A stretch of 60,213 bases of DNA, filler included. It is 6 parts of 6 records of this genome, joined end to end, with 100 filler letters (N's around TTAATTAATTAA, not from the genome) between each part and the next. Parts side by side here need not be neighbours in the genome. Positions count along the whole stretch, not along the records: positions 36,424 to 49,816 come from SRR31147125_18363; 5 more parts are not named here. One strand, 5' to 3'. This document shows, in pieces, positions 7,244 to 49,916 of the stretch; the stretch's first letter is position 1; every line of letters begins with the position of its first letter. The notes below the pieces were generated by a model. That model ran no database searches. It saw only the letters and a list, made by a program, of their open reading frames with translations, and was not told the origin of the DNA. The translations under genes and the position numbers were made by a program.

Positions 7244-7343
7244 NNNNNNNNNNNNNNNNNNNNNNNNNNNNNNNNNNNNNNNNNNNNTTAATTAATTAAN
7301 NNNNNNNNNNNNNNNNNNNNNNNNNNNNNNNNNNNNNNNNNNN
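7244..7343. other. Artificial contig linker
   Basis: N44-TTAATTAATTAA-N44, which places stops in all six frames. Confidence 0.98.
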
Positions 7344-13723: not shown

Positions 13724-13823
13724 NNNNNNNNNNNNNNNNNNNNNNNNNNNNNNNNNNNNNNNNNNNNTTAATTAATTAANNNNNNNNNNNNNNNNNNNNN
13801 NNNNNNNNNNNNNNNNNNNNNNN
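13724..13823. other. Artificial contig linker
   Basis: N44-TTAATTAATTAA-N44. Confidence 0.98.
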
Positions 13824-20062: not shown

Positions 20063-20162
20063 NNNNNNNNNNNNNNNNNNNNNNNNNNNNNNNNNNNNNN
20101 NNNNNNTTAATTAATTAANNNNNNNNNNNNNNNNNNNNNNNNNNNNNNNNNNNNNNNNNNNN
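20063..20162. other. Artificial contig linker
   Basis: N44-TTAATTAATTAA-N44. Confidence 0.98.
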
Positions 20163-23802: not shown

Positions 23803-25650
23803 GTGTGCCCGGCATGTCGTGTGTATGTTAAATTTACTATAATATACACTGATTATCCAGAGGGTGCAAGTCCCTTATGGGCGAGTTGGCAAAGCCCATT
23901 AGTAAGCCGCAAGGGCGTTCAGGGCGACCTGAAGTCTGAAGGAAGCGGGACTACAAGAGTCTGTACGGACGAACAGAAACTGCATACGAGGCATAGCTTT
24001 GTGGGTGAGCAACCACATCTTTGCAAAGCCCGTGGCCAACAAACTCAGCTATGTAGATGCAGCCGGGATAGACTCAAGGATAAGCGGCTTACCCGGGGAG
24101 ATCCCGACAGATATTTAGTTGGGAAGTCAGCCGAAGCCATAGTAGCCAAACGCCGGTGGTAATGCGCTGGACACGGTGAAGGGCTGAACATTAACCCGTT
24201 CCGGATTGATTTGGGATGAACATGGACGAATGGTAGACTCCAAGTCCTGCTCAAGCCCATTATAAGAAAGAACACAGTAAAGAAAGGAAGGCATGATAGC
24301 ACTAATCCTTTCCAAAGAAAACATGACACAAGCGTTCCACCAGGTGCGACGGAATCAAGGCGCCGCAGGAGTAGACGGCATATCGGTTAACGATTTGGCA
24401 TCTACTCTGCACCGGCGCTGGGATTCAATCAAACATCAGGTGGAGACAGGAAGTTACCAGCCCGATGCAATACTGGGCGTTGAAATACCCAAGCCAAACG
24501 GCAAGAAACGACTTTTGGGCATCCCAACAGTCGTTGATCGGGTATTACAACAGGCACTGCAACAACAGCTAAGCCCACTATTCGAGCCGGACTTCCAACA
24601 GCACAGTTATGGTTTTCGCCCCAATCGCAACGCCCATCAGGCAGTCCGGCAGGCATTGGAAAATATCAATGATGGTTATCAAGACATTGTTGATATTGAC
24701 CTGAAAAGCTTCTTCGATAAAGTCAGTCATGAACTTTTGATGACTTTGATCTATCGAAAAGTCAAATGCCCGCTCACCCTGAAACTGATTCGGAAATTCT
24801 TACGAGCTCCCATTTCCATAAACGGAAAGCTCGTGAAACGACGCAAAGGCGTTCCGCAAGGCAGTCCGCTCAGTCCGTTGCTGTCCAATATCATTTTAAA
24901 TGAACTGGACAAAGAACTGACCAAACGTGGACACCGCTATGTGCGTTACGCCGACGATTTCAGCATCTATCTGCGGAGCAAAACAGCAGCCAGACGAGTA
25001 GGGAACAGTATTTACCTGTTTCTCAAGAACCGACTGCGTCTGCCCATCAACCGTGAGAAAAGCGGAATCCGTCGTCCGAGCACGTTTTATCTGCTCGGTT
25101 ATGGTTTTGTGCCTGTGTTTCGCAAAGGCTCAAAAGGAAAGTATCAACTTGTGGTCGACCGAAAGGCCCTCAGGAAACTGAAAGCGCAAATCAAGTCCAT
25201 CACTCGTAAAACAATCCCTGCCAGCTTTGACGAACGCATCGCACGACTGAATCTTTTACAAACAGGGTGGATCAATTATTTCAAATTAGCCAACATGTAC
25301 GGCAAACTACGAGATATTGATGTTTGGACTCGCCGCCGCTTGCGTGGCTGCATCTGGCATGACTGGAAGAAGCCAAACCGTAAGATGAAGAATCTTATTC
25401 GGTTGGGAGTTCAACCAGGCATTGCTTACTCATGGAGCCGCACCCGAATGGGACGCTGGGCCGTTGCCTGCAGTCCAATTCTGAGCACAACAATTACAAA
25501 TGCCAGATTGGAACGCAGGGGCTATATTTCAATGCTATCGTATTACCTTAAACTAACTCATGGTTAATGAACCGCCGTGTACGAGACCCGTACGCATGGT
25601 GGTGTGAGAGGCGCACTCCAGTGGGTAACTGCTGGAGCCGCCTACTCGAT
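23803..25650 (+). mobile_element. Group IIC intron (attC-targeting type), 1848 nt
   Basis: 5' end GTGTGCCCGGCATG, GGGTGCAAGTCCC in domain I and an RT ORF. Domain V is GAACCGCCGTGTACGAGACCCGTACGCATGGTGGTGTGAGAGG with a CGC triad, and domain VI ends in CCTACTCGAT. Confidence 0.9.
24293..25567 (+). CDS. ltrA: Group II intron reverse transcriptase/maturase (no endonuclease domain)
   Basis: GAAGVDG, LGIPTVVDR, SYGFRP, DIDLKSFFD, GVPQGSPLSPLLSNI, YADD and a thumb region with GWINYF. Length 424 aa. Confidence 0.95.
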   Translation: MIALILSKENMTQAFHQVRRNQGAAGVDGISVNDLASTLHRRWDSIKHQVETGSYQPDAILGVEIPKPNGKKRLLGIPTVVDRVLQQALQQQLSPLFEPDFQQHSYGFRPNRNAHQAVRQALENINDGYQDIVDIDLKSFFDKVSHELLMTLIYRKVKCPLTLKLIRKFLRAPISINGKLVKRRKGVPQGSPLSPLLSNIILNELDKELTKRGHRYVRYADDFSIYLRSKTAARRVGNSIYLFLKNRLRLPINREKSGIRRPSTFYLLGYGFVPVFRKGSKGKYQLVVDRKALRKLKAQIKSITRKTIPASFDERIARLNLLQTGWINYFKLANMYGKLRDIDVWTRRRLRGCIWHDWKKPNRKMKNLIRLGVQPGIAYSWSRTRMGRWAVACSPILSTTITNARLERRGYISMLSYYLKLTHG

Positions 25651-36323: not shown

Positions 36324-36423
36324 NNNNNNNNNNNNNNNNNNNNNNNNNNNNNNNNNNNNNNNNNNNNTTAATTAATTAANNNNNNNNNNNNNNNNNNNNN
36401 NNNNNNNNNNNNNNNNNNNNNNN
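36324..36423. other. Artificial contig linker
   Basis: N44-TTAATTAATTAA-N44. Confidence 0.98.
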
Positions 36424-36451
36424 TTTGTGGGGGGAGTGAGGAGCTATCTTC

Positions 36452-37084
36452 ATGACAACCGAACGGCGTATGATCTCTCTGGGGCTGTCCGAGCAGCAGT
36501 TTCCAGAAGGTCAACATATCTGCTACATCTACAACGATGACACCGAACGTCTGCAAACCATGGCCAAGTATCTGAAGAGCGGTCAGGAAGCCAAAGAGAA
36601 GCTGCTCTACCTGGTCGATGCCATGACCACGGAAGAGATGGTCACCTACCTCGCAACCCAGGGCATTGATCTGGATCATGCAAAGCCCGGCAGTCTCAAC
36701 CTTTCTGAAGCCACCCCCGCCTATTGCCCCTCCGGCTTTTTCAAAACAGAAGAAATGCTCGACCTGGTGCGGGATTTTTACCTCGGAGCCTTGGACGAAG
36801 GCTATGCCGGAGCGCGCGGGACCGGAGAGATGAGTTGGTGCCTGTCTCAGGAGCAAACCCGCCACATCGACCTGATGGAGTATGAAGCCCGTCTGAACAA
36901 CCTGGTCAAAGACTACCCCTACACGGCGTGCTGACAGTACGATGCCCGTCAGTTTGACGGCCAGACAATTATGGATGTTCTCAATGTTCACCCGGCGATG
37001 ATCGTTAATGGTCAGATCGTAAAAAATCCCTATTACATCGACCCGGAAGAGTTTCTTGTGAAGTTAAGAAAGCGTCACGCATGA
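36452..37084 (+). CDS. MEDS (DcmR-type sensory) domain protein, predicted selenoprotein (UGA at 36932-36934), 210 aa
   Basis: GQHICYIY, RGTGEMSW and YEARLN motifs. The reading frame continues past UGA as QYDARQFDGQTIMDVLNVHP...NPYY and ends at a TGA overlapping the next ATG. Confidence 0.85.
36946..36960 (+). promoter_or_regulatory. SECIS-like hairpin of the MEDS gene
   Basis: CCGTCA-GTT-TGACGG, starting after an 11-nt spacer from the UGA. Confidence 0.7.
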
Positions 37085-40000
37085 CTCCCGGCGAACTTCA
37101 GACCCTCGGTCAATTTCTGCTGCTGCAAAACGCACTGCATATCGCGACCAACCCTCGCCAGATGGGTGAATTGGTCTGTGCGACACTGTCTGAAGTTCCG
37201 GGTATTCACTCCGTCGCAATCTACCTTGACCAGACAAAGGTCGCTCAAACCTACGGAACGGATGACTCTCTTTTCGACTGGCCGCATACAGCTCAGGTGA
37301 ATGACAGCTTCTTAACCGACGAATCCAACAGTATTTCTATCGTCCGCATTGAGAAAGGTCGAAACACGTTCGGCTTTATTGCTTATGTCTGCGGCTTGTC
37401 GATCGATTGCCAACCCTACCGCCCTCACATCGAAAATACCGCCCATATTTTTGCCCTGCTGCTGCAGAACAAGGAGCAGTCCGCACTGATTGAAGCGACG
37501 AACAGAAATCTTGAAGATCAAGTCGCAGAACGCTTTCGCTCATTGCAGCAAAGCGAAAACCGCCTACGTCTGGCTCAGAAAGCCGCGAAGTGCGGCCTCT
37601 GGGATTGGGACATCAAAAAGGATATTGTTTTTTTCAGCCGGGAATATTTCACCCTCGCCGGTTATGAGCCGGATGCGTTTCCGCACTCTTACAATGAGTG
37701 GAGATTACGTGTTCATCCCGACGATCTGGAAGAAACAGAACAGAGCATCAAAGACTATCTTACGGGAAAAGCGCCTAACTTTTCTGTCGAATTCCGTTTC
37801 AAAACATCCGACGGTGGTTGGGTGTGGCTTCTGTCCCAGGGAGAGATCACGGAACGTGATTCAGAGGGAAATCCCTTACATATCTGTGGTCTCCACATCG
37901 ATATCAGTGATAAAAAGAAATTTGAACAGCGGCTCATCGCCAACGAATACAAATACCGGACCCTTCTGGACAACCAGAACGATGCAATCTTCGTTCATAA
38001 ATTAGAACAAAAAGGATACAGCACCTTCACTGAAGTCAACCGGGAGGCGGTCGAACGCTACGGATACTCCCAAGAAGAGCTCTATCAGATGACCCCGGCT
38101 GACCTTTCATCAGCGGCCATCCAGCCCCCTCACCTGAACATCCGATGTCCAAGCTCAGAGAATCCGGGCAGGCCATTTTTGAATCGATTCATGTCAGTAA
38201 ATCGGGAGAACAGATCCCTGTCGAAGTCAGTGCACAACTGATTGATCTGGACAACGAAAAATACATTCTCGCTTCGGCAAGAGACCTGCGTGAACGGCTC
38301 AAAGCCCGGGAGGCACTCCATCGAGTCATTCAGGAGTGGCAGACGGCTATGGATGCCTTTGAGGACATCATTTACCTGCTTGATAACGACCGCTGTCTGG
38401 TTCGGGCAAACAAGGCATTTTACAAGGTCCTGAACGTCACACCGGAAGAAGCGAAAGGGCAACTGATCTCACAAATTATGCACCCGGACGGTGACGATAT
38501 GACCCGTGATGTTTGCCGCGCTCAGATCGAAAAGTACGACCTGGTCACCGTTCAGGAACCGAGTGACCCGAACAACCCGACGGGCAAACCGATCGAAATC
38601 TCGGTTAAAATCATCCGTGATGAGCAGGACAGGTCGACCGGGATTCTGATGACCCTGCATGACCTGACCCATACACGTCAGATTGAACAGCAGATCCGTG
38701 AAAGTGAAATTAAGTATCGCACGCTTGCAGACTACACCTACGACTGGGAGGCCTGGATCAGCCCTAAAGGGGAATACATTTATATTTCTCCTTCCTGCGA
38801 ACGCGTGACCGGCTACTCACGGGAAGAGTACATCGCCAATCCAGGTTTGCTGTTCGATATTATCCCCGAGGAGCACAAAAACTCTGTCGCCACTCATTAC
38901 GAAGAGAAAAATGCGAACAGGGATCCCTATCACGATATGATTTTCCCGATCATTCACAAAAATGGTGAGCAGCGCTGGATCGAGCATCACTGTACCGCTG
39001 TTTTTGATGAAAAAGGTCGCTACCTCGGCCGGCGGAACAACAATAGAGATATCACCATTCGCAAACTGGCCGAGGACAAACATCTGGAACTTGAAGAACA
39101 GCTTCGTCAGAAATACAAAATGGAAGCGATCGGCATCATGGCCGGCGGGATGGCCCACAACTTTAACAACAACCTCTCCATCATCCTTGGAAATATCGAG
39201 CTGTCAAAACTCAACAAAAATGATCGGGACGCCATCGATCGCTACCTGGATAACGCCAAGATAGCAGTCCTTCGATCACGTGACCTGATCAAGCAGATCA
39301 TGCTCTACAGCCGCCAGGAATCCCAAAAGAAAGAGCAGCAGAATGCGGTTGAAATCATCGACGAAACACTCAAGCTTTTAAGCGCGACCCTGCCAAGCAC
39401 CATCGAATTGTCCGCGGACATTTCGCCTTTGATGAAAGACAGCTATATTATTGCGGACGCATCTCAAGTTCAGGAATGCATCATCAACCTGTGTAACAAC
39501 GCCATGCAGGCCATGGACGAGAAAGGTCGTATTGTTCTGAAACTTGAGATCGCAACTTTGACAAGCCAGCAGATCCCGGCTCAGTTCAATGCGCTTCCCG
39601 GTGAATACATCGAAATCAGCATCTCGGACACCGGCTGCGGCATGACTCAGGACATCCTGGAAAAGATCTTTGATCTTTTCTATACAACCAAACCGGTCGG
39701 TCAGGGGACGGGTGTTGGTCTGTCCACGGTTCAGGGCATCGTCAAAGAACACCATGGTATCATCAAGGTCAAAAGTGTGCCTGATCACGGCTCCACGTTC
39801 AGTCTTTTCTTCCCGAAATCGGACCAGGCAGACCTCGGCCCTGACCAACCACTGGCTGAAGGAAAAAATATAAACCGTGAAGCACGCATTCTGTTTGTCG
39901 ATGACGATGCGATGATCTCAGATCTGGGCGTGCAGATCCTGACAGAAGTTGGATACGACGTCGTTTCAATGACGGACAGCTCTGCCGCACTCGAATTTTT

Positions 40001-40241
40001 CAAGGACAACGCTACCGACATCGACCTGGTCCTGACCGACCAGACCATGCCCGGGCTCACCGGCAAAGAGCTGATCCAGCAGATCAAAGTGATCCGCCCT
40101 GAGACCGCAACCATCCTCTGCACAGGCTACAGCAGTCAGGTCAACGAGGATGAGGCTGAAAAAATCGGCGTGGATGCCTACCTGGAAAAACCGATCGACT
40201 TCTCGACCCTGACAAAGGTCGTCAGAAACACTTTGCAATAG
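37081..40241 (+). CDS. Hybrid histidine kinase (GAF-like, several PAS, HisKA, HATPase, REC), frameshifted near 38130-38145
   Basis: ORFs 37081-38241 and 38145-40241 break within one PAS domain. Motifs: GLWDWD, VHPDD, AGGMAHNFNN, NLCNNA, DTGCG, GTGVGLS and DLVLTDQTMP. Confidence 0.88.
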
Positions 40242-40322
40242 TGTCCCCTGCTGCTACTCGGTACATTCGGCGGCTGTCAGCTACTCTTTTTTCATCTCGT
40301 ATTGATTCTTAAGCGGATGACT

Positions 40323-41966
40323 TCACTGACGATTTTCACAGACATGTCGACGCGCATGTTCAACCGTCTGATCCAGATCGTGAAAAATATGGTCAGGTCT
40401 CAAAATGGAGGCGATATCGAGGCGTAAAAGTTTTGCCTTGATATCTTCATTCACAACAACAAAAGGCATGATCTCTTTTTCTTTGAGTTTCAGAATGATC
40501 TCCGTCAAAGCAAAAAAGGCAGACAGATCGATAAATGGGACCTTGGTACAATCAAAGATGACAAGCTTCGTTCCGAGCATTTCGCCAACCTGCCCAACGA
40601 CCTGGGAGGTCGAACCGAAAAAAAACGGCCCGTCGATCCTAATAATGCGAATATGAAAACTGTCATCAAAGGTGTGATTTTGACACTCGTTGACGCCCTT
40701 GACCGGGACATCCAACTCACTGACTGACAACTGCATCAGCCGGGTGACCCTGATGGTCAACAGAATGGAAGCCAGAACGACGCCGACACCGACCGCCACG
40801 ATTAAATCAACAAAAACAGTCAGAAACAGAACTGCGACCATGACGGCAAGATCATGCTTCGGTGCTTTTCTCAGCAACTTTAAAAATCGGTAGTCAACAA
40901 TATCGAGGCCAACCTTCAGAAGAATGGCCGCAAGAACAGCCATAGGGACCATCGAAGCGTATGAACCAAGGCCCAGCAGGATCGCTAACAGAATGACGGC
41001 ATGCAATGCACCAGACAGGCGGCTGTTGCCACCCGATTTCACATTAACGACCGTACGCATGGTCGCACCGGCCCCGGGCAGCCCTCCAACGAAGGCAGAG
41101 AGAGCGTTCCCCAAGCCCTGACCAATCAATTCGCGATTCGGATTGTGGGTGGTTTTTGTCAAAGAATCAGCCACCAGTGAGGTCAGCAGACTGTCAATCG
41201 CTCCGAGAACTGCAAGGCTCAAAGCGGCAGAGACAATCAAAGACGCCTGTTCAATGCTGAAACTTGGCCAACTGACAGAAGGCAGACCTGATGGGATAGC
41301 ACCAATCGTTGGGACCTGAAACCCGAATACGCGCGTGATCGCGGTCACGAGCAGAAGTGCTATCAATGGTGTCGGAACGACCCGAGCGATCTTTTTAGGG
41401 GTCAAAAAAACGATCACCAAAGCTATCAGGCTAACGACAACAACATCCCACTGAATTGATGATCCCAGTTGCGCAAGTGCGACAACCGCCTGGAGGGGAG
41501 AGTTCATCCCCTCAACCCCAAACAGAGGATTGATTTGCAGCAGAATGATAATGATCCCGATCCCACTCATAAACCCTGAGATAACCGGATACGGAACATA
41601 TTTGACGAATTTTCCAACCCTCAAAAAGCCGAGCAGAATTTGAAATAGTCCCGTCAACAGCACTGCCGCCATCAGGAGCGTGATATCCCCGTGGAACAAA
41701 ACGAGCGTCGATGCGGCAACAATCGTCATCGGCCCGGTCGGACCAGATATCTGAATTTTTGTTCCACCACTGAGTGACGCGACAAAACCGAGAACAATAG
41801 CGCCATAAAGACCGGCCTGAGCGCCGGCACCGCTGGCCACACCAAAAGCCAGCGCCAGAGGCAGAGCGATGATACTCGCGGTCACACCGCCGAACAGATC
41901 TCCAACCAGTGATTGACATCCAGGTAACTTCATCCTGCCTTTTGGCTCTCTTTCTGTGGCAATCAT
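40323..41966 (-). CDS. SulP family inorganic anion transporter with STAS domain
   Basis: ALPLALAFG, QISGPTGP, RELIGQGLGN, GATMRT and DGPFFFG motifs. Confidence 0.93.
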   Translation of the reverse strand: MIATEREPKGRMKLPGCQSLVGDLFGGVTASIIALPLALAFGVASGAGAQAGLYGAIVLGFVASLSGGTKIQISGPTGPMTIVAASTLVLFHGDITLLMAAVLLTGLFQILLGFLRVGKFVKYVPYPVISGFMSGIGIIIILLQINPLFGVEGMNSPLQAVVALAQLGSSIQWDVVVVSLIALVIVFLTPKKIARVVPTPLIALLLVTAITRVFGFQVPTIGAIPSGLPSVSWPSFSIEQASLIVSAALSLAVLGAIDSLLTSLVADSLTKTTHNPNRELIGQGLGNALSAFVGGLPGAGATMRTVVNVKSGGNSRLSGALHAVILLAILLGLGSYASMVPMAVLAAILLKVGLDIVDYRFLKLLRKAPKHDLAVMVAVLFLTVFVDLIVAVGVGVVLASILLTIRVTRLMQLSVSELDVPVKGVNECQNHTFDDSFHIRIIRIDGPFFFGSTSQVVGQVGEMLGTKLVIFDCTKVPFIDLSAFFALTEIILKLKEKEIMPFVVVNEDIKAKLLRLDIASILRPDHIFHDLDQTVEHARRHVCENRQ

Positions 41967-42635
41967 CTATCCAAGGTAGCGGCTCTCAAGAGCCGAAATA
42001 TCGTCCGTAAGCTGCCTGCGGTTCAGTTGTTTTTGCAACAGAGTAAAGAAATCAGCCTCCATCAACAAACGTTGAAGCCTGGTTTTAACAATCAACCGTT
42101 CTGTTTTATTTGCAGCCAACAGCAGAATGACAAGATAGGTGTCGACCCCATCAATGGCTTTAAAATTCATGGGCTCTTCAAGGTAAGCAAAGATCAACTT
42201 TGTTGTGTCTATTTCATAGGACCCATCGAGCTCCGGGGTCAAAAAAGAAACGCCCTGCAACGATGATGAGATGATCGACTCTCGATAGAGAATATTTTTT
42301 TTGATGCCAAGCCCTTGCTCTGGCGACAACGCATCGAGCATACCGAGAACGTCGTCCAGCAGTTCATCACGGTCACTGCCATGAACCCGGTAGCTTATCA
42401 GGCCGTTGACCAAAGCATCGACAACACGGATCTGGCTATTAATAGGCATCTTCCCAGGTTCTGATGAACGAGAGGCCACAATCCATTTGTCAATTTTCTC
42501 GCTGTTAAACCGCCACTGTCCACCTATCTTGATCGCAAAAGGGATCATACCGTCCCCGAGCATGCGATAAACTGTCTTCTCGGACACCCCTAAACGAACG
42601 GATAGCTCTTTGACAGACAGGAAAGCCTTGTCCAT
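41967..42635 (-). CDS. Excisionase/MerR-like HTH fused to a PTS EIIA(Ntr)-like domain
   Basis: LSVKELSVRLGVSEKTVYRM...IPFAIKIGGQWRF, then EIIA-like RESIISS and FKAIDG. The likely start is MDKAF after GGAG. Confidence 0.8.
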   Translation of the reverse strand: MDKAFLSVKELSVRLGVSEKTVYRMLGDGMIPFAIKIGGQWRFNSEKIDKWIVASRSSEPGKMPINSQIRVVDALVNGLISYRVHGSDRDELLDDVLGMLDALSPEQGLGIKKNILYRESIISSSLQGVSFLTPELDGSYEIDTTKLIFAYLEEPMNFKAIDGVDTYLVILLLAANKTERLIVKTRLQRLLMEADFFTLLQKQLNRRQLTDDISALESRYLG

Positions 42636-42691
42636 ATTAGTCTCCATTTGTCCACTTTTGTCCATTCTAGTCTTTTGCAAATTGATGTCAA
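42628..42691 (-). promoter_or_regulatory. Sigma-70 promoter overlapped by five 10-bp-phased direct repeats
   Basis: TTGACA (42691-42686), 16-bp spacer, TAGAAT (42669-42664). TWGTCY occurs on the + strand at 42628, 42638, 42648, 42658 and 42668. Confidence 0.65.
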
Positions 42692-42886
42692 TAGCGATCG
42701 GCCAGCGGCCTGCCTGTAAAATGCCACAGCACAGTCTATTCTGATCATCAAGAGCGTTTTGATGTTTCGAGGAGAATCGGGCAAAAGAAAAAACGGAACG
42801 AACAATAAGGCGACGGACATTGACAATTATTAATTCTGGTATAGTATTTTTCTGATCTTTGATGATAAGAGAACACGAAGGAGAGA

Positions 42887-43204
42887 ATGATGATCATAAC
42901 CAACGTCAATACCGTCCCGGGCAAGAAAATCGTCGAACACTTCGGCATTGTTCAAGGGAGCACAGTACGCGCCAAGCATGTCGGCCGCGATTTCATGGCC
43001 AGTTTGAAAAATCTGGTTGGTGGCGAGCTGAAAGGCTATACCGAGCTGCTTCAGGATTCGCGTCAGGAAGCGATGAAACGGATGGAAGAGCAAGCCCGCC
43101 AGATGGGTGCCAATGCCGTTGTCAATATACGCTTTGCGACCTCGTCAGTGGCCCAGGGAGCAGCAGAACTGTTCGCCTACGGAACCGCTGTCCGCGTTGA
43201 ATAG
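42887..43204 (+). CDS. YbjQ/UPF0145 family protein
   Basis: GIVQGSTVRAKHVGRD...GGELKGY...GANAVVNIRF...YGTAV. Confidence 0.92.
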   Translation: MMIITNVNTVPGKKIVEHFGIVQGSTVRAKHVGRDFMASLKNLVGGELKGYTELLQDSRQEAMKRMEEQARQMGANAVVNIRFATSSVAQGAAELFAYGTAVRVE

Positions 43205-43212
43205 GAGCACTC

Positions 43213-43686
43213 ATGGACATTCTGCTTCATAATTTTGACCTGGTCATTTTTCTGCTGTTGATGACCCTCGGCTACAGCGCCGGCACCTGGGCTGAGAAAA
43301 AGCACTATCGCTCCATCAACAAGCGTGAGCAGGACCTGCTTGCGATTCCTGTTGTCACAGCTGAGGGCAGCTTCCCGGAGGGTCGTGTCGCCAACGCTGA
43401 GCTGGTTCAGGGCAGTGTCGTCATCTCGATCGATTACTTCAAACGCCTACTCGCTATCCTGCGCAATATTTTTGGTGGTCGGGTCAAATCCTACGAATCG
43501 CTGGTCGACCGGGCTCGTCGCGAAGCGATCCTGCGGATGAAAGAGCAGGCCGACGAAATGGGTGCTGGAATGATCATCAACATGCGCCTGGAAACCTCCA
43601 CCATCGGTCGCAGCGCCAACAAGAAAAAACGTGTCGGCAGCGTCGAAGCGATTGCCTACGGCACAGCAATCGTCAAGAATAGGTAA
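43213..43686 (+). CDS. Membrane-anchored YbjQ family protein
   Basis: N-terminal TM, then GSVVISIDYFKR, GGRVKSYE and AYGTA. Confidence 0.88.
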   Translation: MDILLHNFDLVIFLLLMTLGYSAGTWAEKKHYRSINKREQDLLAIPVVTAEGSFPEGRVANAELVQGSVVISIDYFKRLLAILRNIFGGRVKSYESLVDRARREAILRMKEQADEMGAGMIINMRLETSTIGRSANKKKRVGSVEAIAYGTAIVKNR

Positions 43687-44535
43687 ATGAAGTTCACTCC
43701 CAAAGCCTTGAGCGACAACGTCAACGTCTCCAAGACTCACCCGCTGGTTGAACTGGGTTGGCTGGTCGGGGGGCTCGTTCTGATCACAGGATGTGTGTTT
43801 TTTCTGCTCGGGGTGACAACCGACTGGGCCGCAAAGAAGACACCTGTCTCAGTGGAAAATTGGCTCGGGAACCTCGCTTTAAACGAGTTTCCAGCAGAGG
43901 AGAGTCCTGCCCTTCAAAAGAGGCTGGATAAACTTCTGGCCGTTGCTCCCGAAGAATCCCCCCTGCATGACTACGACTTCACCATATATCGGTCTGCAAC
44001 GGAGGATGTGAACGCCCTCGCTCTTCCCGGCGGGCGGATCGTTGTTTTTGACGGCCTGCTGAAGCAGATCGAATCGGAAAACGAATTGGCGATGATTCTG
44101 GCCCATGAACTGGGGCACTTTGCCCACCGTGACCATCTGCGCGGTCTCGGCCGTGGTCTTGGACTGGCGGTCGCGTCGATCCTGTTCCTAGGTGAAGGCA
44201 ATTCTGCCAGTGACCTGATTTCCAAATCGCTGTTGACCTTTCAGGTGAAGTACTCGCAGGATCAGGAATCGGCGGCGGATCGGTTCGGAGTTGACCTGCT
44301 CACGGCGCGCTACGGTCACGCAGGAGGCGCAACCACCTTCTTCGAACGCCTGTCTGAAGAGGCGGGGAGCAAAATCCCTTATGTTCTCGCATCACATCCT
44401 CACCCTGAAAATCGGATTGACGCATTGAACGAGCGGATAAACAATCATGCATACCCGGTTTTAAAAACCACGCCCATCCATCAAGACCTGACCTCTGAAA
44501 TGATCGAGAAAAAACCATCTCAAAACAAATCGTGA
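43687..44535 (+). CDS. M48 family metallopeptidase
   Basis: NALALPGG, AHELGH, YSQDQESAAD and SHP motifs. Confidence 0.92.
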   Translation: MKFTPKALSDNVNVSKTHPLVELGWLVGGLVLITGCVFFLLGVTTDWAAKKTPVSVENWLGNLALNEFPAEESPALQKRLDKLLAVAPEESPLHDYDFTIYRSATEDVNALALPGGRIVVFDGLLKQIESENELAMILAHELGHFAHRDHLRGLGRGLGLAVASILFLGEGNSASDLISKSLLTFQVKYSQDQESAADRFGVDLLTARYGHAGGATTFFERLSEEAGSKIPYVLASHPHPENRIDALNERINNHAYPVLKTTPIHQDLTSEMIEKKPSQNKS

Positions 44536-44608
44536 GCATCTTTGGACTTTTATTCCGCTGTTGCTGTGGTAACGTTAGTGCATCAGCTATCCCCGCAGGA
44601 GAGGTCCG

Positions 44609-45574
44609 ATGAAAAAAGTTCTGATCGGCTTGGTCATAACGATTGCTGTGATCGCCGTTGTTGCGGTGAACAACAAACCGAAACCGGAAGGGAAAATCTG
44701 GATCGGTGGCGGTCCGCAAGGGGGCGCTCTCGTTGTTTTTGCCGAAGGGCTGAAAGAGCTTCTCGAAGCGGAAGAAAAGAGTCTGGACGTCAACGTCATC
44801 GGCTCGGGCGGTTCGGTGGCGAACCTCGGAAGTATTGAGGCCGGCAAGCTGGATCTCGCCTGGGGTTATGCGACCGACATGTACCTCGGATATCAGGGGG
44901 AATTGGGCCCCGGGCAACCTCGTTTCGAAAACGCACTTGTCCTCGGACGGGTCTACGGCTCTTCCGCCCAACTGGTCGTCAATCAGGACAGCGTTATCAA
45001 ATCACCCTTCGACCTGATTAACAGAAGAATCGCCGTCGGTTGCTCCGGATCGGGGTCGGCTCACAGCGCTGAACGCTACTTCAAATCTCTGGGGATCTGG
45101 GACCAGATCATCCCGCTCTACATGGGCTATGATCTCGGTATTCAGGAGATGTACAAGGGAAGAGCTGAAGCTATCTGGCAACTGGCCAGTGTGCCGAGCC
45201 CTTCTCTGGCCGAATTAAGCAAAGATCATCCCGTGCGGATGTTGGGCCTGATTAAAGCTGCGGAGAAGCACCGCTTCTTTGAAGATTATCCCTTTTACAC
45301 CAGCATTGAAATCCCCGCTGGAACGTACAGCGGTATCGATGAAACAATCCACACCTATCAGGACAACACCCTTCTGGTCACCCACGCGGACGTTGACCCC
45401 GAACTGATCAAACTGACGTTAAAAGCCCTGTTCAGTCCGGCAGGGGTGCAGACACTGCGCGATCAGCATCTCATCGCCAAAGACTTCAGTATTGGCAGTG
45501 CGCTTCAGGGTGTACAAACGCCTCTCCACCCGGAAGCCGAACGCTTCTGGAAAAAACAGGGGCTTCTCAAATAG
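44609..45574 (+). CDS. TAXI family TRAP transporter solute receptor
   Basis: GGGPQGG, SGGSVANL, GSGS, IPAGTY and PLHPEA motifs. Confidence 0.88.
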   Translation: MKKVLIGLVITIAVIAVVAVNNKPKPEGKIWIGGGPQGGALVVFAEGLKELLEAEEKSLDVNVIGSGGSVANLGSIEAGKLDLAWGYATDMYLGYQGELGPGQPRFENALVLGRVYGSSAQLVVNQDSVIKSPFDLINRRIAVGCSGSGSAHSAERYFKSLGIWDQIIPLYMGYDLGIQEMYKGRAEAIWQLASVPSPSLAELSKDHPVRMLGLIKAAEKHRFFEDYPFYTSIEIPAGTYSGIDETIHTYQDNTLLVTHADVDPELIKLTLKALFSPAGVQTLRDQHLIAKDFSIGSALQGVQTPLHPEAERFWKKQGLLK

Positions 45575-45659
45575 CCCTTACTGAAAAATTGTCCAGCCCC
45601 CTTCCCTTCACATCTGTGGCACATGCTATAATCGGCTAAATCCAAAAGGAAGGAAAACC

Positions 45660-46074
45660 ATGAGACAATCGATTCGCACGTTTATTGTGGTGACAGCCCT
45701 TTTTGTCGTCCTGTTCGCAGGACAATCTCTGGCCGCAGGCATCAGCGATGTCAAGCGGATCACCGTTGACGAACTCGTCCAACTCCAGACCAGTGAAAAG
45801 GTTGTCGTGATCGACACCCGGGCTCCGAGCCAGTGGCTGTACCAAGGATAAAATCCCTGGAGCGATCCGGCTACCATCCTTCGACGCGCTCGACACCTTT
45901 AAGACCGAGGTTGCAACGGATCAGGCGATCGTTACCTACTGCACCTGACCGAACGAAGGCACCAGCGCCAGTTTGGCGCTGACGTTGATGGAGCAAGGCT
46001 ATCAACGCGTCTGGCCTCTGCTCGGAGGCTACGGAGCCTGGCAAAAAGCAGGCATGCCGCTGGAAGAAAAATAG
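45660..46074 (+). CDS. Exported rhodanese-like selenoprotein (YCT-U-PNE), frameshifted near 45845
   Basis: Signal peptide and VIDTR, then in a shifted frame DKIPGAIRL...IVTYCT-UGA(45946)-PNEGTSA...LLGGYGAW...PLEEK*. Confidence 0.8.
45963..45981 (+). promoter_or_regulatory. SECIS-like hairpin of the rhodanese gene
   Basis: CAGCGCCA-GTT-TGGCGCTG, starting after a 14-nt spacer from the UGA. Confidence 0.7.
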
Positions 46075-46170
46075 CCGACAAGGAAATCGTTTTTAAATGA
46101 TGTCAAACAGGTTATAATTCAACGATATGAAATGTAAACTCTGAATCGAAACTGACAAAGGAGAGACGTT

Positions 46171-46350
46171 ATGACCGAATGTAGCTGCGACAACCCGGAA
46201 GAACATTGTGACTTGCACGTATGCCAGTTAACCGCCAGCGAGCGGCACCCGGACATTGAGAAAATGTTCGAGAACCCACGCTACGCATGTACAAATTGCG
46301 GTGCCAAGGTTCATGATGCCCGCAACGTCTGCCGGCCGAAAGAGCTGTAA
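46171..46350 (+). CDS. Small Cys/His-rich protein, 59 aa
   Basis: RBS AAGGAG. Translation MTECSCDNPEEHCDLHVCQL...YACTNCGAKVHDARNVCRPKEL*. It is followed by a terminator and is below the ORF-track cutoff. Confidence 0.8.
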   Translation: MTECSCDNPEEHCDLHVCQLTASERHPDIEKMFENPRYACTNCGAKVHDARNVCRPKEL

Positions 46351-46374
46351 CAGACCAACGACATAAAACAGACA

Positions 46375-46405
46375 GAGGCCTCGGAGAATTCCGGGGCCTT
46401 TTATT
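46375..46405 (+). terminator. Intrinsic terminator
   Basis: GAGGCCTCGGA-GAAT-TCCGGGGCCTT followed by TTATTT. Confidence 0.7.
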
Positions 46406-46557
46406 TCGCTCCACTCACCAAAACAACGGGATTGGCCTCCAAAGCATCCATACGCTAAGAAAACTTAAAAGGATTGTTTTTCTTGGTGGCTTGGCGCTTT
46501 TGTGGCTCACAATTTGACGTTTTTTGGAGACATCTTCTTTTGGGTTATCGCTCCGTT

Positions 46558-47349
46558 TTATTTTGCCGGGGCGGGACAGGTCAGTCCTTCAAAATGTTCG
46601 CAGGCGACGGTCAGATGCTCAACCAGATAATTCTGTGCCTCAACGGACAAACCCAGTTGATCCAACTCACGCTGTAGATCTTCGAGTTCCCCGTAACAAC
46701 CCAAATAACCATTAAGTCTGGCTGCGGCGGTTGATGCCGCGAAACTCTCTTCACTCGGGAAACGCGTCCTGAAATCCTCAAATATTCTGTCAGTCTTACG
46801 CAGGTAGTACTTTTGGTGATAGTCTTCGGCCGGATAGAATGCCGTTGCTTTTTCAATGGGCGTATAAATTGTCCGTTTAAGCTTATCTTTGATCTGTGCG
46901 CGTGAGTGCTCGGCCGATCGCTTCTGTTGTTCCGACTGATAAAGAATGACATTGCGATACTGGCGTCCGAAAACTTCATAGGTCGGAGTGTGGCTGGCCC
47001 AGAACACGTCAAGGAGCTGCTCGTAGGAAACCACTTCAGGATCGTACTCCACCAGAACGGTCTCGGTATGATCCTTCATCTGCAGATAACTGGGGTCCGG
47101 CTCACGCCCGCCGGCATAGCCGGACAACGTCTTGTGAACACCCTGAATACTCCCGAACCGGGAGTCGATGCCCCAGAATCAGCCAAGGCCGAAAAGGGCG
47201 ATCTCCAGCGTCCCCGGTTCAACCCTGTCCAGCGGAGGACGCTCCATCAAAGAAGAGTCTGTGACCGCCAGGGCCGAACCGATAGCTAGAAAGCCCCCCC
47301 CGAGGACGACAATCAGCCCGATCAGTATATGCCTCAATGTCTGCGTCAT
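46558..47349 (-). CDS. msrA: Peptide methionine sulfoxide reductase A, selenocysteine form, with N-terminal signal/TM
   Basis: ALFGLG-UGA(47181-47179)-FWG replaces the catalytic GCFWG. GYAGG, DHTE and FYPAEDYHQKYY follow in the same frame. Confidence 0.9.
47149..47165 (-). promoter_or_regulatory. SECIS-like hairpin of msrA
   Basis: Minus-strand ACTCCCG-GTT-CGGGAGT, starting after a 13-nt spacer from the UGA. Confidence 0.72.
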
Positions 47350-47451
47350 AAAAAGATTGTCGCATTGTTGCTGCAAACAGAACAAGGGGTGTACGATAGA
47401 TTTCAATGAAGCAGTGATTGGAATATCAATCCTCGCCCTAAGGAGTCACCC

Positions 47452-48114
47452 ATGAAACACACAGTCATTACCGGAGCCAACCGGGGGATCGGTCTTGAGC
47501 TGGCAAAGCACTACCAGACGCATGGCTGGTCGGTCACAGGCGTCTGCCGCGAGACATCTCCGGAGCTGGAGCAGGTCGCAACCCGAGTCATCAGTGATAT
47601 TGATGTCACAGATGCGGAGGCCGTTCAACGGCTGGCAAAAGAGCTCAGCGGCCAGACGATTGACCTCCTGATCAACAACGCCGGCCTGCTGGAAGACAAC
47701 GTCCTCGGATCGATCGATTACGATTCCCTGCGCCTGCAGATGGAGATCAATGCTTACGCACCGTTAAGGATCTGTGAAGCGCTCCTGCCAAACCTGAAAA
47801 GCGGCAGCAAGATCGCCAACATCACCAGCCGGATGGGGTCGATTGCCGACAACGATTCAGGCGGACGCTATGGGTACCGGGCGTCAAAAGCCGCCTTCAA
47901 TGCCTTTGGCAAATCCCTCGCCGTCGATCTGCAACCACGGGGGGTTGCCGTTGCCCAACTCCACCCGGGGTATGTCAAGACACGGATGGTCAACTTTAGC
48001 GGGATTCTGACCACGGATGAGTCCGTGGCCGGCATGGTTGAACGGATCGAAGAATTAACCCTGGAAAACAGCGGTTCTTTCTGGCACACCAACGGTGAGG
48101 AACTGCCCTGGTAG
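47452..48114 (+). CDS. Short-chain dehydrogenase (CsgA/C-factor-like)
   Basis: TGANRGIG, INNAG, SRMGS, YRASK and HPGYVKT motifs. Confidence 0.92.
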   Translation: MKHTVITGANRGIGLELAKHYQTHGWSVTGVCRETSPELEQVATRVISDIDVTDAEAVQRLAKELSGQTIDLLINNAGLLEDNVLGSIDYDSLRLQMEINAYAPLRICEALLPNLKSGSKIANITSRMGSIADNDSGGRYGYRASKAAFNAFGKSLAVDLQPRGVAVAQLHPGYVKTRMVNFSGILTTDESVAGMVERIEELTLENSGSFWHTNGEELPW

Positions 48115-48138
48115 AAACTGACACAGATGGCCTCCCGT

Positions 48139-48170
48139 AAGCCTCAGCAGCCCCTGCTGAGGCTTTCTTC
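48139..48170 (+). terminator. Intrinsic terminator
   Basis: AAGCCTCAGCAG-CCC-CTGCTGAGGCTT followed by TCTTC. Confidence 0.65.
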
Positions 48171-48292
48171 TGCCCCACTCCTCGCTTCACTCCTAAATAC
48201 AGATTAAACATTTGATTTTCAGCGAAAAACTCTTAAAATTTCAAAATCACCATTGAATCTTATGACAGCTGACAGCGCGTGGAGGAAATGCC

Positions 48293-49573
48293 ATGGCACA
48301 CCACACTCTGAAATCCGGATATTCCCGTCTGGTTGATCGTCTCAATCGCTTTCCCCAAGGAGCCCCGCCTTCTGAGCTGCTTTACAAGATACTGGCGATG
48401 CTCTTCAGCGAGCGCGAAGCACAACTGGTCGCCCTGCTGCCGATCAAGCCCTTTACCATCGAAAAGGCAAGTCAAATCTGGAAATTGAACCGGATCGAAA
48501 CTCAGAACATTCTAGATGAATTAGCCGGACGGGCCATCCTTGTCGATATCGAGGAAGATGGTGAGCAGATCTATGTCCTGCCGCCCCCGATGGCCGGTTT
48601 TTTCGAGTTTTCCCTGATGCGGACGCGGGGCGATCTGGACCAGAAAGTCTTGAGTGAACTGTTCTATCAGTACATGAATGTCGAAGAGGACTTCATCCGT
48701 GCGCTTTTTACCCAGGGAGAAACGCAGCTAGGGCGTACTTTTGTCCATGAACCTGTATTGACCAATGAGGACGCCCTCCATGTCCTCGACTACGAACGGG
48801 CGACCGAGGTGATTAAAACCGCCAGCCATATCGGCGTCGGCACCTGCTACTGCCGTCACAAGATGTATCATGTCGGCAAAGCCTGCGACGCGCCGATGGA
48901 AAACTGCATGACCTTCAACACCTCGGCGGCATCCCTGATCAAACATGGTCATGCTCGTCAAATCGATACCGGCGAGTGCCTCGACCTGTTGCAGGAAGCG
49001 TACGACCATAACCTGGTTCAGTTCGGTGAAAACGTCCGCGAACGCGTCAATTTTATCTGTAACTGCTGCGGGTGCTGCTGTGAAGCAATGATCGCGGCAC
49101 GAAAGTTTGCCATTCTCAATCCGGTTCACACCACCAACTTCATCCCCGTGATCGATCAGGCCAACTGCACGGGATGTGGCCAGTGCGTCACCATCTGCCC
49201 GGTCGAAGCCATCGCTCTGGCCTCAGCCAACGATCCGCATAACCCGAAACGTAAGCACGCTACTCTGATCGAGGAGCGCTGCCTGGGATGCGGGCTCTGT
49301 GTACGCGGCTGCCCTATCGATGTGATCAAACTTGAAGCGCGTGAAGAGCGTGTCTTGACGCCATTGAACAGCGTGCACAAAGCGGTGGTCATGGCGGTCG
49401 AACGGGGGAAGCTGCAGAACCTGATCGTCGACAATCAGGCCCAGTTCAATCACCGGGCCCTGGCAGCAATTCTGGGGGCAATCTTGAAGTTGCCGCCGAT
49501 CAAACAGATCATGGCGACACAGCAGGTTAAATCCCGCTATCTGGAACGGTTGATTGAACGGATGGACAGCTAG
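48293..49573 (+). CDS. 4Fe-4S dicluster protein with N-terminal wHTH-like region
   Basis: CYCRH, ICNCCGCCC and two CxxCxxCxxxCP motifs. Confidence 0.88.
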   Translation: MAHHTLKSGYSRLVDRLNRFPQGAPPSELLYKILAMLFSEREAQLVALLPIKPFTIEKASQIWKLNRIETQNILDELAGRAILVDIEEDGEQIYVLPPPMAGFFEFSLMRTRGDLDQKVLSELFYQYMNVEEDFIRALFTQGETQLGRTFVHEPVLTNEDALHVLDYERATEVIKTASHIGVGTCYCRHKMYHVGKACDAPMENCMTFNTSAASLIKHGHARQIDTGECLDLLQEAYDHNLVQFGENVRERVNFICNCCGCCCEAMIAARKFAILNPVHTTNFIPVIDQANCTGCGQCVTICPVEAIALASANDPHNPKRKHATLIEERCLGCGLCVRGCPIDVIKLEAREERVLTPLNSVHKAVVMAVERGKLQNLIVDNQAQFNHRALAAILGAILKLPPIKQIMATQQVKSRYLERLIERMDS

Positions 49574-49596
49574 GTCTCTTTTCAGGCATTTCAAAC

Positions 49597-49675
49597 AGGT
49601 CGCGGGGTTACGCCCCCGCACGGCATGTTACTTTCTTGATATGCGTCAAGAGCGTAACCAAAGAAACGCACCCAG
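49597..49675. repeat. Probable MITE/REP-like intergenic element
   Basis: GCGGGG-TTACG-CCCCGC hairpin, then GTTACTTTCTTGA...TCAAGAGCGTAAC inverted repeat. Confidence 0.45.
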
Positions 49676-49716
49676 ATGCCTTGCGTTCTGACTACGGCAA
49701 ACGGGAAGGTTGAAGT

Positions 49717-49757
49717 CCCCCCTCACCCCAACCCTCTCCCGCAATGTGAAGAGGGAG
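49717..49757. repeat. REP-like CCCTCACCCCAACCCTCTCCC element
   Basis: Matches a widespread bacterial intergenic repeat with a CCCTCT...AGAGGG hairpin. Confidence 0.5.
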
Positions 49758-49816
49758 CAAAACACCGGAGCGAGTTTGTTGTTTTTGCTTTTCGCCCATG
49801 GGAGAAGCTCTGCTTC

Positions 49817-49916
49817 NNNNNNNNNNNNNNNNNNNNNNNNNNNNNNNNNNNNNNNNNNNNTTAATTAATTAANNNNNNNNNNNNNNNNNNNNNNNNNNNN
49901 NNNNNNNNNNNNNNNN
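49817..49916. other. Artificial contig linker
   Basis: N44-TTAATTAATTAA-N44. Confidence 0.98.

Follow-up and report, generated by a model that had tools for sequence, protein, structure and literature searches.

The gene at positions 36452–37084 (plus strand) of the 60,213-nt stretch of DNA analysed here (the window) raises the question of whether its in-frame UGA codon at 36932–36934 ends the encoded protein or is read as selenocysteine (Sec). The gene encodes a stand-alone MEDS protein (a domain with an inactive-KaiC fold) of 210 codons plus a stop. The UGA is codon 161, lies in the context TAC-U-QYD and is aligned with the invariant cysteine of the family. Comparative sequence evidence makes it very probable, in our judgement, that the product is a full-length MEDS protein in which residue 161 is Sec. 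The window consists of six pieces joined by linkers (N...TTAATTAATTAA...N) at 7244–7343, 13724–13823, 20063–20162, 36324–36423, and 49817–49916, so gene order across the joins is meaningless. The MEDS gene and the rhodanese and methionine sulfoxide reductase (MsrA) genes considered below are all located on one piece, the fifth of six (36424–49816). The MEDS ATG is only 28 nt inside this piece, so the upstream promoter region is missing.

The open reading frame (ORF) called with translation table 11 from the ATG at 36452 ended at 36934 and comprised 160 aa. Past the in-frame TGA, the frame continued for 49 sense codons (QYDARQFDGQTIMDVLNVHP...NPYY...) to a second TGA at 37082–37084. Residues 22–181 of the read-through product (210–211 aa) matched positions 2–161 of the 161-position Pfam MEDS profile PF14417 with an E value of 6.2e-41 and 140.4 bits (gathering cut-off, 29.8). 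The match covers the whole profile, and the MEDS domain therefore spans the TGA, in agreement with the first-pass annotation, which had proposed from the DNA letters that the 49 codons beyond the UGA complete the domain. The AlphaFold model of the read-through protein had a mean predicted local distance difference test (pLDDT) score of 96.4 with no weak C-terminal part; the block means for residues 161–210 were 97–98, falling to 85 at the final residue.

One reading of this gene is that the UGA is a true stop, leaving a 160-residue truncated MEDS protein followed by 49 untranslated codons that are a pseudogene or decaying 3′ remains. Gene callers and the public record HKJ05583.1 ("MEDS domain-containing protein") indeed annotate 160 aa, and both the weakness of the downstream hairpin and the other apparent lesions on the same contig piece, described below, favour this reading. 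Against it stand a tail that makes the Pfam domain complete and has a model pLDDT of 97–98, the recurrence of the stop at one column of the family, always as TGA, and the pattern of substitution beyond it.

A word-indexed protein search returned 333 matches, 120 of which were listed; the homologue counts given here refer to those 120. Thirty-six of them stopped exactly after ...TAC, namely 35 proteins of 154–160 aa and P0070, which has a longer N-terminus; the short forms ended in ...[YF]P[YH]TAC or similar. All 84 full-length homologues (about 190–239 aa) had Cys at the next position, reading CQYD in 83 and CVYD in one. At the DNA level, 51 related loci came from a set in which each species was represented by a single genome, and ten metagenome loci were added to them (61 in total). 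The metagenome loci came from a scan with the degenerate pattern Y-T-A-C-TGA-Q-Y-D, which returned 11 loci, of which ten were genuine MEDS Sec forms; the remaining match, L055, was rejected as a chance match. TGA was present at the column in three of the 51 genome loci, and all others that reached the column had TGC or TGT. The three TGA loci belonged to metagenome-assembled genomes (MAGs) of a Desulfuromonadaceae member (L001), an uncultured deltaproteobacterium (L002), and a Geopsychrobacteraceae member (L004). Over the 61 loci, the column comprised Cys in 46, TGA in 13, a gap in one, and Ile in one, the last two (L050 and L051) being at contig or alignment ends. The Cys was kept even in archaeal and other homologues at 27–40% identity, and it is therefore the invariant cysteine of the family. 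The conserved C-x-Y-D motif that the first-pass annotation had named for MEDS domains was thus present, as was the pairing of Cys and UGA at this column in many independent assemblies, with 13 loci beyond the window carrying TGA. All 13 Sec-form loci had the TGA together with the same hairpin, and the in-frame stop was always TGA and never TAA or TAG.

Twelve distinct Sec-form sequences (66 pairs) were used to compare selection on the two sides of the UGA. The mean proportions of nonsynonymous (pN) and synonymous (pS) differences were 0.141 and 0.743 across 47 downstream codons, with a median ratio of nonsynonymous to synonymous rates (dN/dS) of 0.086, and 0.213 and 0.801 across 50 upstream codons. 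The stretch after the UGA is under strong purifying selection and is at least as constrained as the codons before it. Set beside the same TGA column in the 36 listed protein clusters and 13 loci, this makes a true stop highly improbable.

A sequencing or assembly error that turned TGC or TGT into TGA would also yield a spurious stop, and the fragmented assembly and the apparent frameshifts elsewhere on the piece lend this some colour. However, the same TGA was present in 13 loci from different assemblies, which comprise 11 distinct sequences. In addition, a contig of 19,146 nt from run X1 (word depth 23.6) covered all 633 bases of the gene at ≥99%, with no difference listed at the TGA. This contig was built separately, possibly from the same source sample, and counts against an assembler artefact only. 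Runs X2 and X3 gave only short pieces, 90–99% alike, and the X3 piece ended too near the TGA to inform. The chance that the TGA is an error is next to negligible. No RNA run was found among the runs listed as carrying the MEDS stretch.

The candidate bacterial Sec insertion sequence (SECIS) is a hairpin at 36946–36960 (plus strand) with a 6-bp stem (CCGUCA/UGACGG) and a GUU loop. It is separated from the UGA by an 11-nt spacer (36935–36945), giving a UGA-to-loop distance of 17 nt; both the hairpin (CCGTCA-GTT-TGACGG) and the spacer were as the first-pass annotation had described them. The stem can be extended to 36943–36963 by two extra pairs past a C.C mismatch, with a folding energy of –7.6 kcal/mol. 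The minimal SECIS of Escherichia coli fdhF is likewise a short upper stem-loop with 11 nt between it and the UGA. The published bacterial SECIS model comprises a loop of 3–9 nt, a stem of 4–16 bp, a UGA-to-loop distance of 16–37 nt, and a minimum free energy of –7.5 kcal/mol or lower, with a G within the first two loop positions that is mostly followed by G or U (PMC13188914). The window hairpin fell within all of these limits, for the energy (–7.6 vs –7.5) only marginally, and the expectation of a SECIS just 3′ of the UGA with a G in its loop was borne out in geometry and barely in energy.

The synonymous sites of the hairpin were investigated in 14 Sec-form DNAs (the window and 13 loci), of which 12 were distinct (the window and 11 loci). 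Within the hairpin codons +4 to +8 (GCC CGT CAG TTT GAC), GCC, CGT, CAG, and GAC were each identical in 12/12 sequences and TTT in 11/12. By comparison, synonymous variation was present in the same 12 DNAs at 20/20 of the remaining degenerate codons from –10 to +24 whose residue is invariant. The probability that the four invariant codons would all fall within those five is 5/12650 = 0.0004 (Fisher's exact test, by hand). The pattern used to retrieve the metagenome loci left the hairpin codons out. The motif here was ARQFDG in all Sec forms; in most Cys forms it was ARRFDG, encoded by varied codons and lacking such a hairpin. Two Sec forms departed from the common structure: in L057, GGG replaces GGC/GGA after the hairpin and turns the C.C mismatch into a pair, giving a 9-bp stem of –14.8 kcal/mol (region, –15.6 kcal/mol), and in L052, TTC opens the closing A-U pair and gives a 5-nt loop, AGUUC. 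The mean fold energy was –8.7 kcal/mol for Sec forms vs –4.9 kcal/mol for Cys forms, with overlapping ranges, and energy alone was rejected as a discriminator between them for this reason. The whole 71-nt region folded no better than its shuffles (z 0.32).

The window contained 11 GTT-loop hairpins with a stem of at least 6 bp on both strands, of which four had a TGA 10–14 nt upstream. Three of these four were the in-frame cases of the MEDS, rhodanese, and MsrA genes. The fourth, TGTCTG-GTT-CGGGCA, had 10 nt ahead of it a TGA that is not in the frame of the kinase ORF (38381–38408, plus strand); this hairpin at 38394 was taken as chance.

The two further genes are known-type selenoprotein genes on the same piece, and, as the first-pass annotation had noted, their hairpins have the same GTT loop as the MEDS hairpin. 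The rhodanese-domain selenoprotein gene (45660–46074, plus strand) has its Sec codon at 45946–45948 (YCT-U-PNEG) and a GUU-loop hairpin at 45963–45981 (CAGCGCCA-GTT-TGGCGCTG). The MsrA gene (46558–47349, minus strand) has its Sec codon at 47179–47181 (GLG-U-FWG) and a GUU-loop hairpin at 47149–47165 (ACTCCCG-GTT-CGGGAGT). The MsrA protein matched Pfam PMSR (E 1.6e-42) and PF20939, [quoted passage not shown]. The MsrA and rhodanese hairpins have stems of 7–8 bp, with loops 20 and 22 nt from the UGA, and both MsrA and rhodanese-like selenoproteins are included in the 2026 catalogue of prokaryotic selenoproteins (PMC13188914). With TGA at known Sec positions in the MsrA and rhodanese genes of the same piece, the organism very probably uses Sec. 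The rhodanese gene also showed a frame change near 45845 (45835–45855), where ...APSQWLYQG-stop is followed by DKIPGAIRLP... in the next frame, an apparent second indel on this 13-kb piece.

Genomes G001 and G002, which hold L001 and L002, respectively, encoded selA, selB, selD, and tRNA-Sec, all above cut-off. In each of them, selD contained one in-frame TGA (G001:C400:5652-6572 and G002:C38:42230-43147), and SelD is therefore itself a selenoprotein there. In G002, selD, selB, and selA were adjacent, and the selD hairpin was unlike that of the MEDS gene, being far stronger (–24 kcal/mol) and having no GUU triloop.

The comparative data show only that translation continues, not which residue is inserted, and in a third reading an ordinary amino acid (Trp, Cys, Gly, or Arg) is put in at the UGA, either through near-cognate decoding or because the code has been reassigned. 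TGA also terminates the MEDS gene of the window and those of six related loci (L002, L052, L054, L057, L061, and L062), so a reassigned code does not apply. All other homologues have Cys at the column, the pattern typical of Sec/Cys exchange, and the hairpin, which has SECIS geometry, has frozen synonymous sites. Two classical selenoprotein genes on the piece and the Sec machinery in relatives likewise speak against insertion of a standard amino acid, which we consider very unlikely. Sec insertion at codon 161 would then fall to the SelB/tRNA-Sec pathway, with the GUU-loop hairpin that lies 11 nt downstream as its signal, and Sec would stand in for the one invariant cysteine of the MEDS family (CQYD).

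Several observations weigh against Sec at this codon or against parts of that reading. The hairpin is short, and its region folded at –7.5 to –8.4 kcal/mol in 11/12 Sec forms; the GUU hairpin passed a crude filter built on the model in only 3/12 (the window, L057, and L062), and the GC-rich Cys forms L012, L026, and L049 folded equally well there (–9.5, –9.4, and –10.3 kcal/mol, respectively). Compensatory base changes were absent among the 12 Sec forms, which showed conservation only. No Rfam family matched the element, and none was found near the gene at gathering thresholds; a permissive Rfam scan of 36880–37040 gave only rows with E values of about 7. Since the energy is weak and covariation is lacking, it is the frozen synonymous sites, and not the energy, that carry the case for the element. 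The window contained no selA, selB, or selD by tblastx with the selD-selB-selA cluster of G002, and no tRNA by ARAGORN. G003 (2.0 Mb), which holds L004, had none of selA, selB, selD, and tRNA-Sec above cut-off. Two apparent frameshifts lie on the piece 36424–49816; both are indels and not substitutions. Finally, the Cys directly before the Sec (Cys160) was kept in only 22 of the 61 loci, with V, I, L, or M in the others, and is predicted to lie inside a beta-strand.

The last point bears on a claim of the first-pass annotation, which had proposed a Sec-containing sensor with a vicinal Cys-Sec pair. The pair is true of the sequence; a vicinal Cys-Sec redox couple was not supported, and the poor conservation of Cys160 and its position in a strand argue against a selenenylsulfide. 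Residues 130 and 160 (codons at 36839–36841 and 36929–36931) co-varied over the 61 loci, with Cys130 accompanying Cys160 and Ala130 accompanying V, I, L, or M; the exceptions were L002 and L057 (Ser130) and L007 and L023 (Ala130). This co-variation suggests, at the sequence level, a contact or a subfamily-specific disulfide beside the Sec, and Cys160 looks like a core residue of this subfamily.

The evolution of the Sec form was investigated with a tree of 121 rows, reconstructed from the columns before the Sec position only and with no root inferred. Around the window protein, the smallest set with support comprised all 37 Sec rows and two Cys rows, P0002 and P0003, with a value of 96 in the Shimodaira–Hasegawa-like approximate likelihood ratio test (SH-aLRT). 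Three changes sufficed to explain the Sec/Cys label on the tree, a number as low as which did not occur in any of 500 shuffles. A single Cys-to-Sec change with one or two reversions would fit this count. The Sec form would, on this sequence tree, have a single or nearly single origin in a narrow clade, represented among named members by the Desulfuromonadaceae and Geopsychrobacteraceae MAGs. P0002 and P0003, the Cys forms within this otherwise all-Sec clade, read ARKFDG and ARRFDG; they are possible Sec-to-Cys reversions that also dropped the hairpin-compatible codons. Among 201 genomes of the order of G001, five had a homologue, and TGA was present in G001 only. Among 401 genomes of its phylum, PF14417 was found in 57, and one of the 73 matches listed, again that of G001, had TGA. 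One other match among these 73 (G328:C83:23-499) had an in-frame TAG near the contig start. A search from the acidobacterial MEDS locus L029 gave 32 matches, none truncated at the column. Sec forms outside the one clade were not found in the genomes searched, among which the form is rare.

Foldseek placed the model closest to FlaH, KaiC, and RecA among solved structures, with E values of about 2e-6 and template modelling (TM) scores of 0.5–0.63 normalised to the query; a profile search of solved structures gave nothing significant (best E value, 0.11). According to the model, the MEDS protein is a RecA-type alpha/beta sandwich, an inactivated KaiC/RecA-like fold, and MEDS is labelled "iKaiC" in a table in the available part of Galperin et al. 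2018 (PMC5847659). These ATPases are the best structural matches, but identity to them is 10–16%, and the Walker A position of MEDS reads Y-N-D-D-x-E-R and not a glycine-rich P-loop. This Y-N-D-D-x-E-R occupies the place of the P-loop after strand 22–27, and strand 120–126 ends at the invariant E126. Because the P-loop is degenerate, nucleotide binding by MEDS is unlikely. Sec161 lies within the next strand of the model (158–164, T-A-C-U-Q-Y-D), beside the strand of the degenerate P-loop. The residues invariant or nearly so over the 61 loci were H22, R122, E126, W129, E145, C/U161, Q162, Y163, D164, and H180, and we infer from the model that these conserved residues line the former nucleotide pocket.

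The MEDS protein has no output domain of its own, and its stop overlaps the ATG of a kinase gene as ATGA (37081–37084). In the N-terminal part of this sensor kinase (37081–38241, plus strand), a conserved GAF-like domain of about 155 aa precedes PAS domains. The rest of the hybrid histidine kinase (38145–40241, plus strand; PAS, PAS, HisKA, HATPase_c, and receiver) is in another frame with a 97-nt overlap. In L001, the kinase homologue occupies one ORF (912 aa), and the split in the window is therefore probably a frameshift. A CCCCC run at 38125–38129 is a possible indel site, the split being either a frameshift error or a real disruption. The N-terminal domain of about 155 aa had no Pfam match; in a protein atlas it was located near GAF clusters (score 0.93), which is a lead only, and in a representative library its 91 matches were at the N-termini of long proteins. 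A gene with this domain followed the MEDS gene in 13/13 Sec-form loci. The arrangement of MEDS followed by kinase passed the filter in 33 loci, including Planctomycetes, Verrucomicrobia, Myxococcota, Desulfobacterales, Ignavibacteria, and others. By analogy with the EtnR2/EtnR1 pair described below, the MEDS protein probably acts on the downstream hybrid histidine kinase as its input module, a contact between the two being suggested by gene order. On another piece of the window, group II intron domains D1–D4 were found at 23918–24184 (plus strand; Rfam RF02001, 117.7 bits; RF01998, 39 bits).

The closest relatives of the window protein outside the Sec clade are Cys-containing stand-alone MEDS proteins at 50–68% identity. 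They share the domain, a length of about 205–218 aa, the CQYD motif, H22, R122, E126, W129, E145, D164, H180, and the same kinase, and differ in having Cys for Sec, no frozen hairpin, and mostly ARRFDG in place of ARQFDG. EtnR2/EtnR1 of Mycolicibacterium chubuense NBB4 is, in the available part of the literature, the only experimentally handled case found of MEDS with a GAF partner (PMC11197473). As far as the available part of that report goes, EtnR2 is likewise a stand-alone MEDS without an output domain that works with a separately encoded GAF regulator, but the partner EtnR1 is a PucR-type DNA-binding activator, no Sec is involved, and the two systems are likened by domain names (PMC11197473).

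Among known selenoproteins, the nearest in sequence context are those with a Cys-Sec (CU) motif: SaoL, SaoC, HgcA, MbdU, the KCU-star family, and 2Fe-2S-binding protein form 2 (PMC13188914). Like the MEDS gene product, they have Cys directly before Sec, are bacterial, and have the SECIS inside the coding region (PMC13188914). They differ in belonging to unrelated folds and families, and the preceding Cys of MEDS is not conserved in its family. Several of them bind a metal or organometal, so that a metal-sensing reading stays open for MEDS. The Sec-containing MsrA and rhodanese genes resemble the MEDS gene in lying on the same piece with a GUU loop, their stems being of 7–8 bp and starting 13–14 nt after the UGA; they differ in encoding enzymes with a catalytic Sec and in having 47-nt regions of about –16 kcal/mol vs –9.6 kcal/mol for MEDS. 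By these sequence comparisons, the recoding mechanism appears to be the ordinary bacterial one, and the MEDS protein would represent a new selenoprotein family that is unusual as a signalling module.

To our knowledge, prokaryotic selenoproteins are nearly all redox or metal-handling enzymes. The first-pass annotation did not know MEDS as one of the established selenoprotein families, and in fact neither PF14417 nor MEDS is present in Table 1 of the 2026 review, which catalogues 119 prokaryotic selenoprotein families or subfamilies and includes no sensor domain (PMC13188914). The terms "MEDS", "sensor", and "histidine kinase" were absent from the texts of that review, the deep-Sep paper (PMC12013277), and the Haft and Gwadz preprint, and "MEDS" and "sensor" from a 2022 selenoprotein review. 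A full-text literature search never paired the MEDS domain or DcmR with selenocysteine or selenoprotein; supplementary tables may list the family. An NCBIfam scan of the window protein matched no selenoprotein model and gave only NF041045, below cut-off. Assignment to the RsbA-family anti-sigma regulatory proteins on the basis of NF041045 was rejected, the score being 48.5 bits vs 210 and the match confined to the MEDS part (profile positions 3–167 of 303).

Exchange between Sec and Cys is one of the most dependable computational pointers to a chemically active cysteine. Compared with a thiol, a selenol has greater nucleophilicity, and it is resistant to irreversible over-oxidation. For these reasons the Cys/Sec could be the sensing residue of MEDS, a nucleophile reversibly modified by an oxidant, an electrophile, or a metal, a proposal to which we give somewhat less than even weight; the selenol would make such a switch more reactive and harder to over-oxidise. 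As far as the available parts of the sources go, the ligands proposed for other MEDS proteins are small hydrocarbon derivatives, with DcmR as a dichloromethane sensor, and EtnR1/EtnR2 have been linked to epoxide detection (PMC11197473). These proposed ligands are electrophiles and therefore fit a nucleophilic sensor. A metal site formed by His, Cys/Sec, Asp, His, and Glu is equally open. The fuller picture of a signalling selenoprotein, with Sec in a dead nucleotide pocket whose reversible modification switches the partner histidine kinase, is more tentative still. Because the MEDS stop and the kinase start overlap or lie close together, ribosomes might also reach the kinase only after Sec insertion, with selenium supply gating expression of both full-length MEDS and the kinase, but this we regard as unlikely.

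For annotation, the immediate consequence is that 36 clusters among those listed are recorded as truncations of about 160 residues. In the available part of the literature, the ligand and mechanism of MEDS are still a 2005 prediction, and the Sec/Cys pair would single out Cys161 (CQYD) as the working residue of the family. Sec-MEDS would add a signalling protein to the selenoproteome and, if the proposed switching of the kinase is true, would give two-component systems their first selenol-based input.

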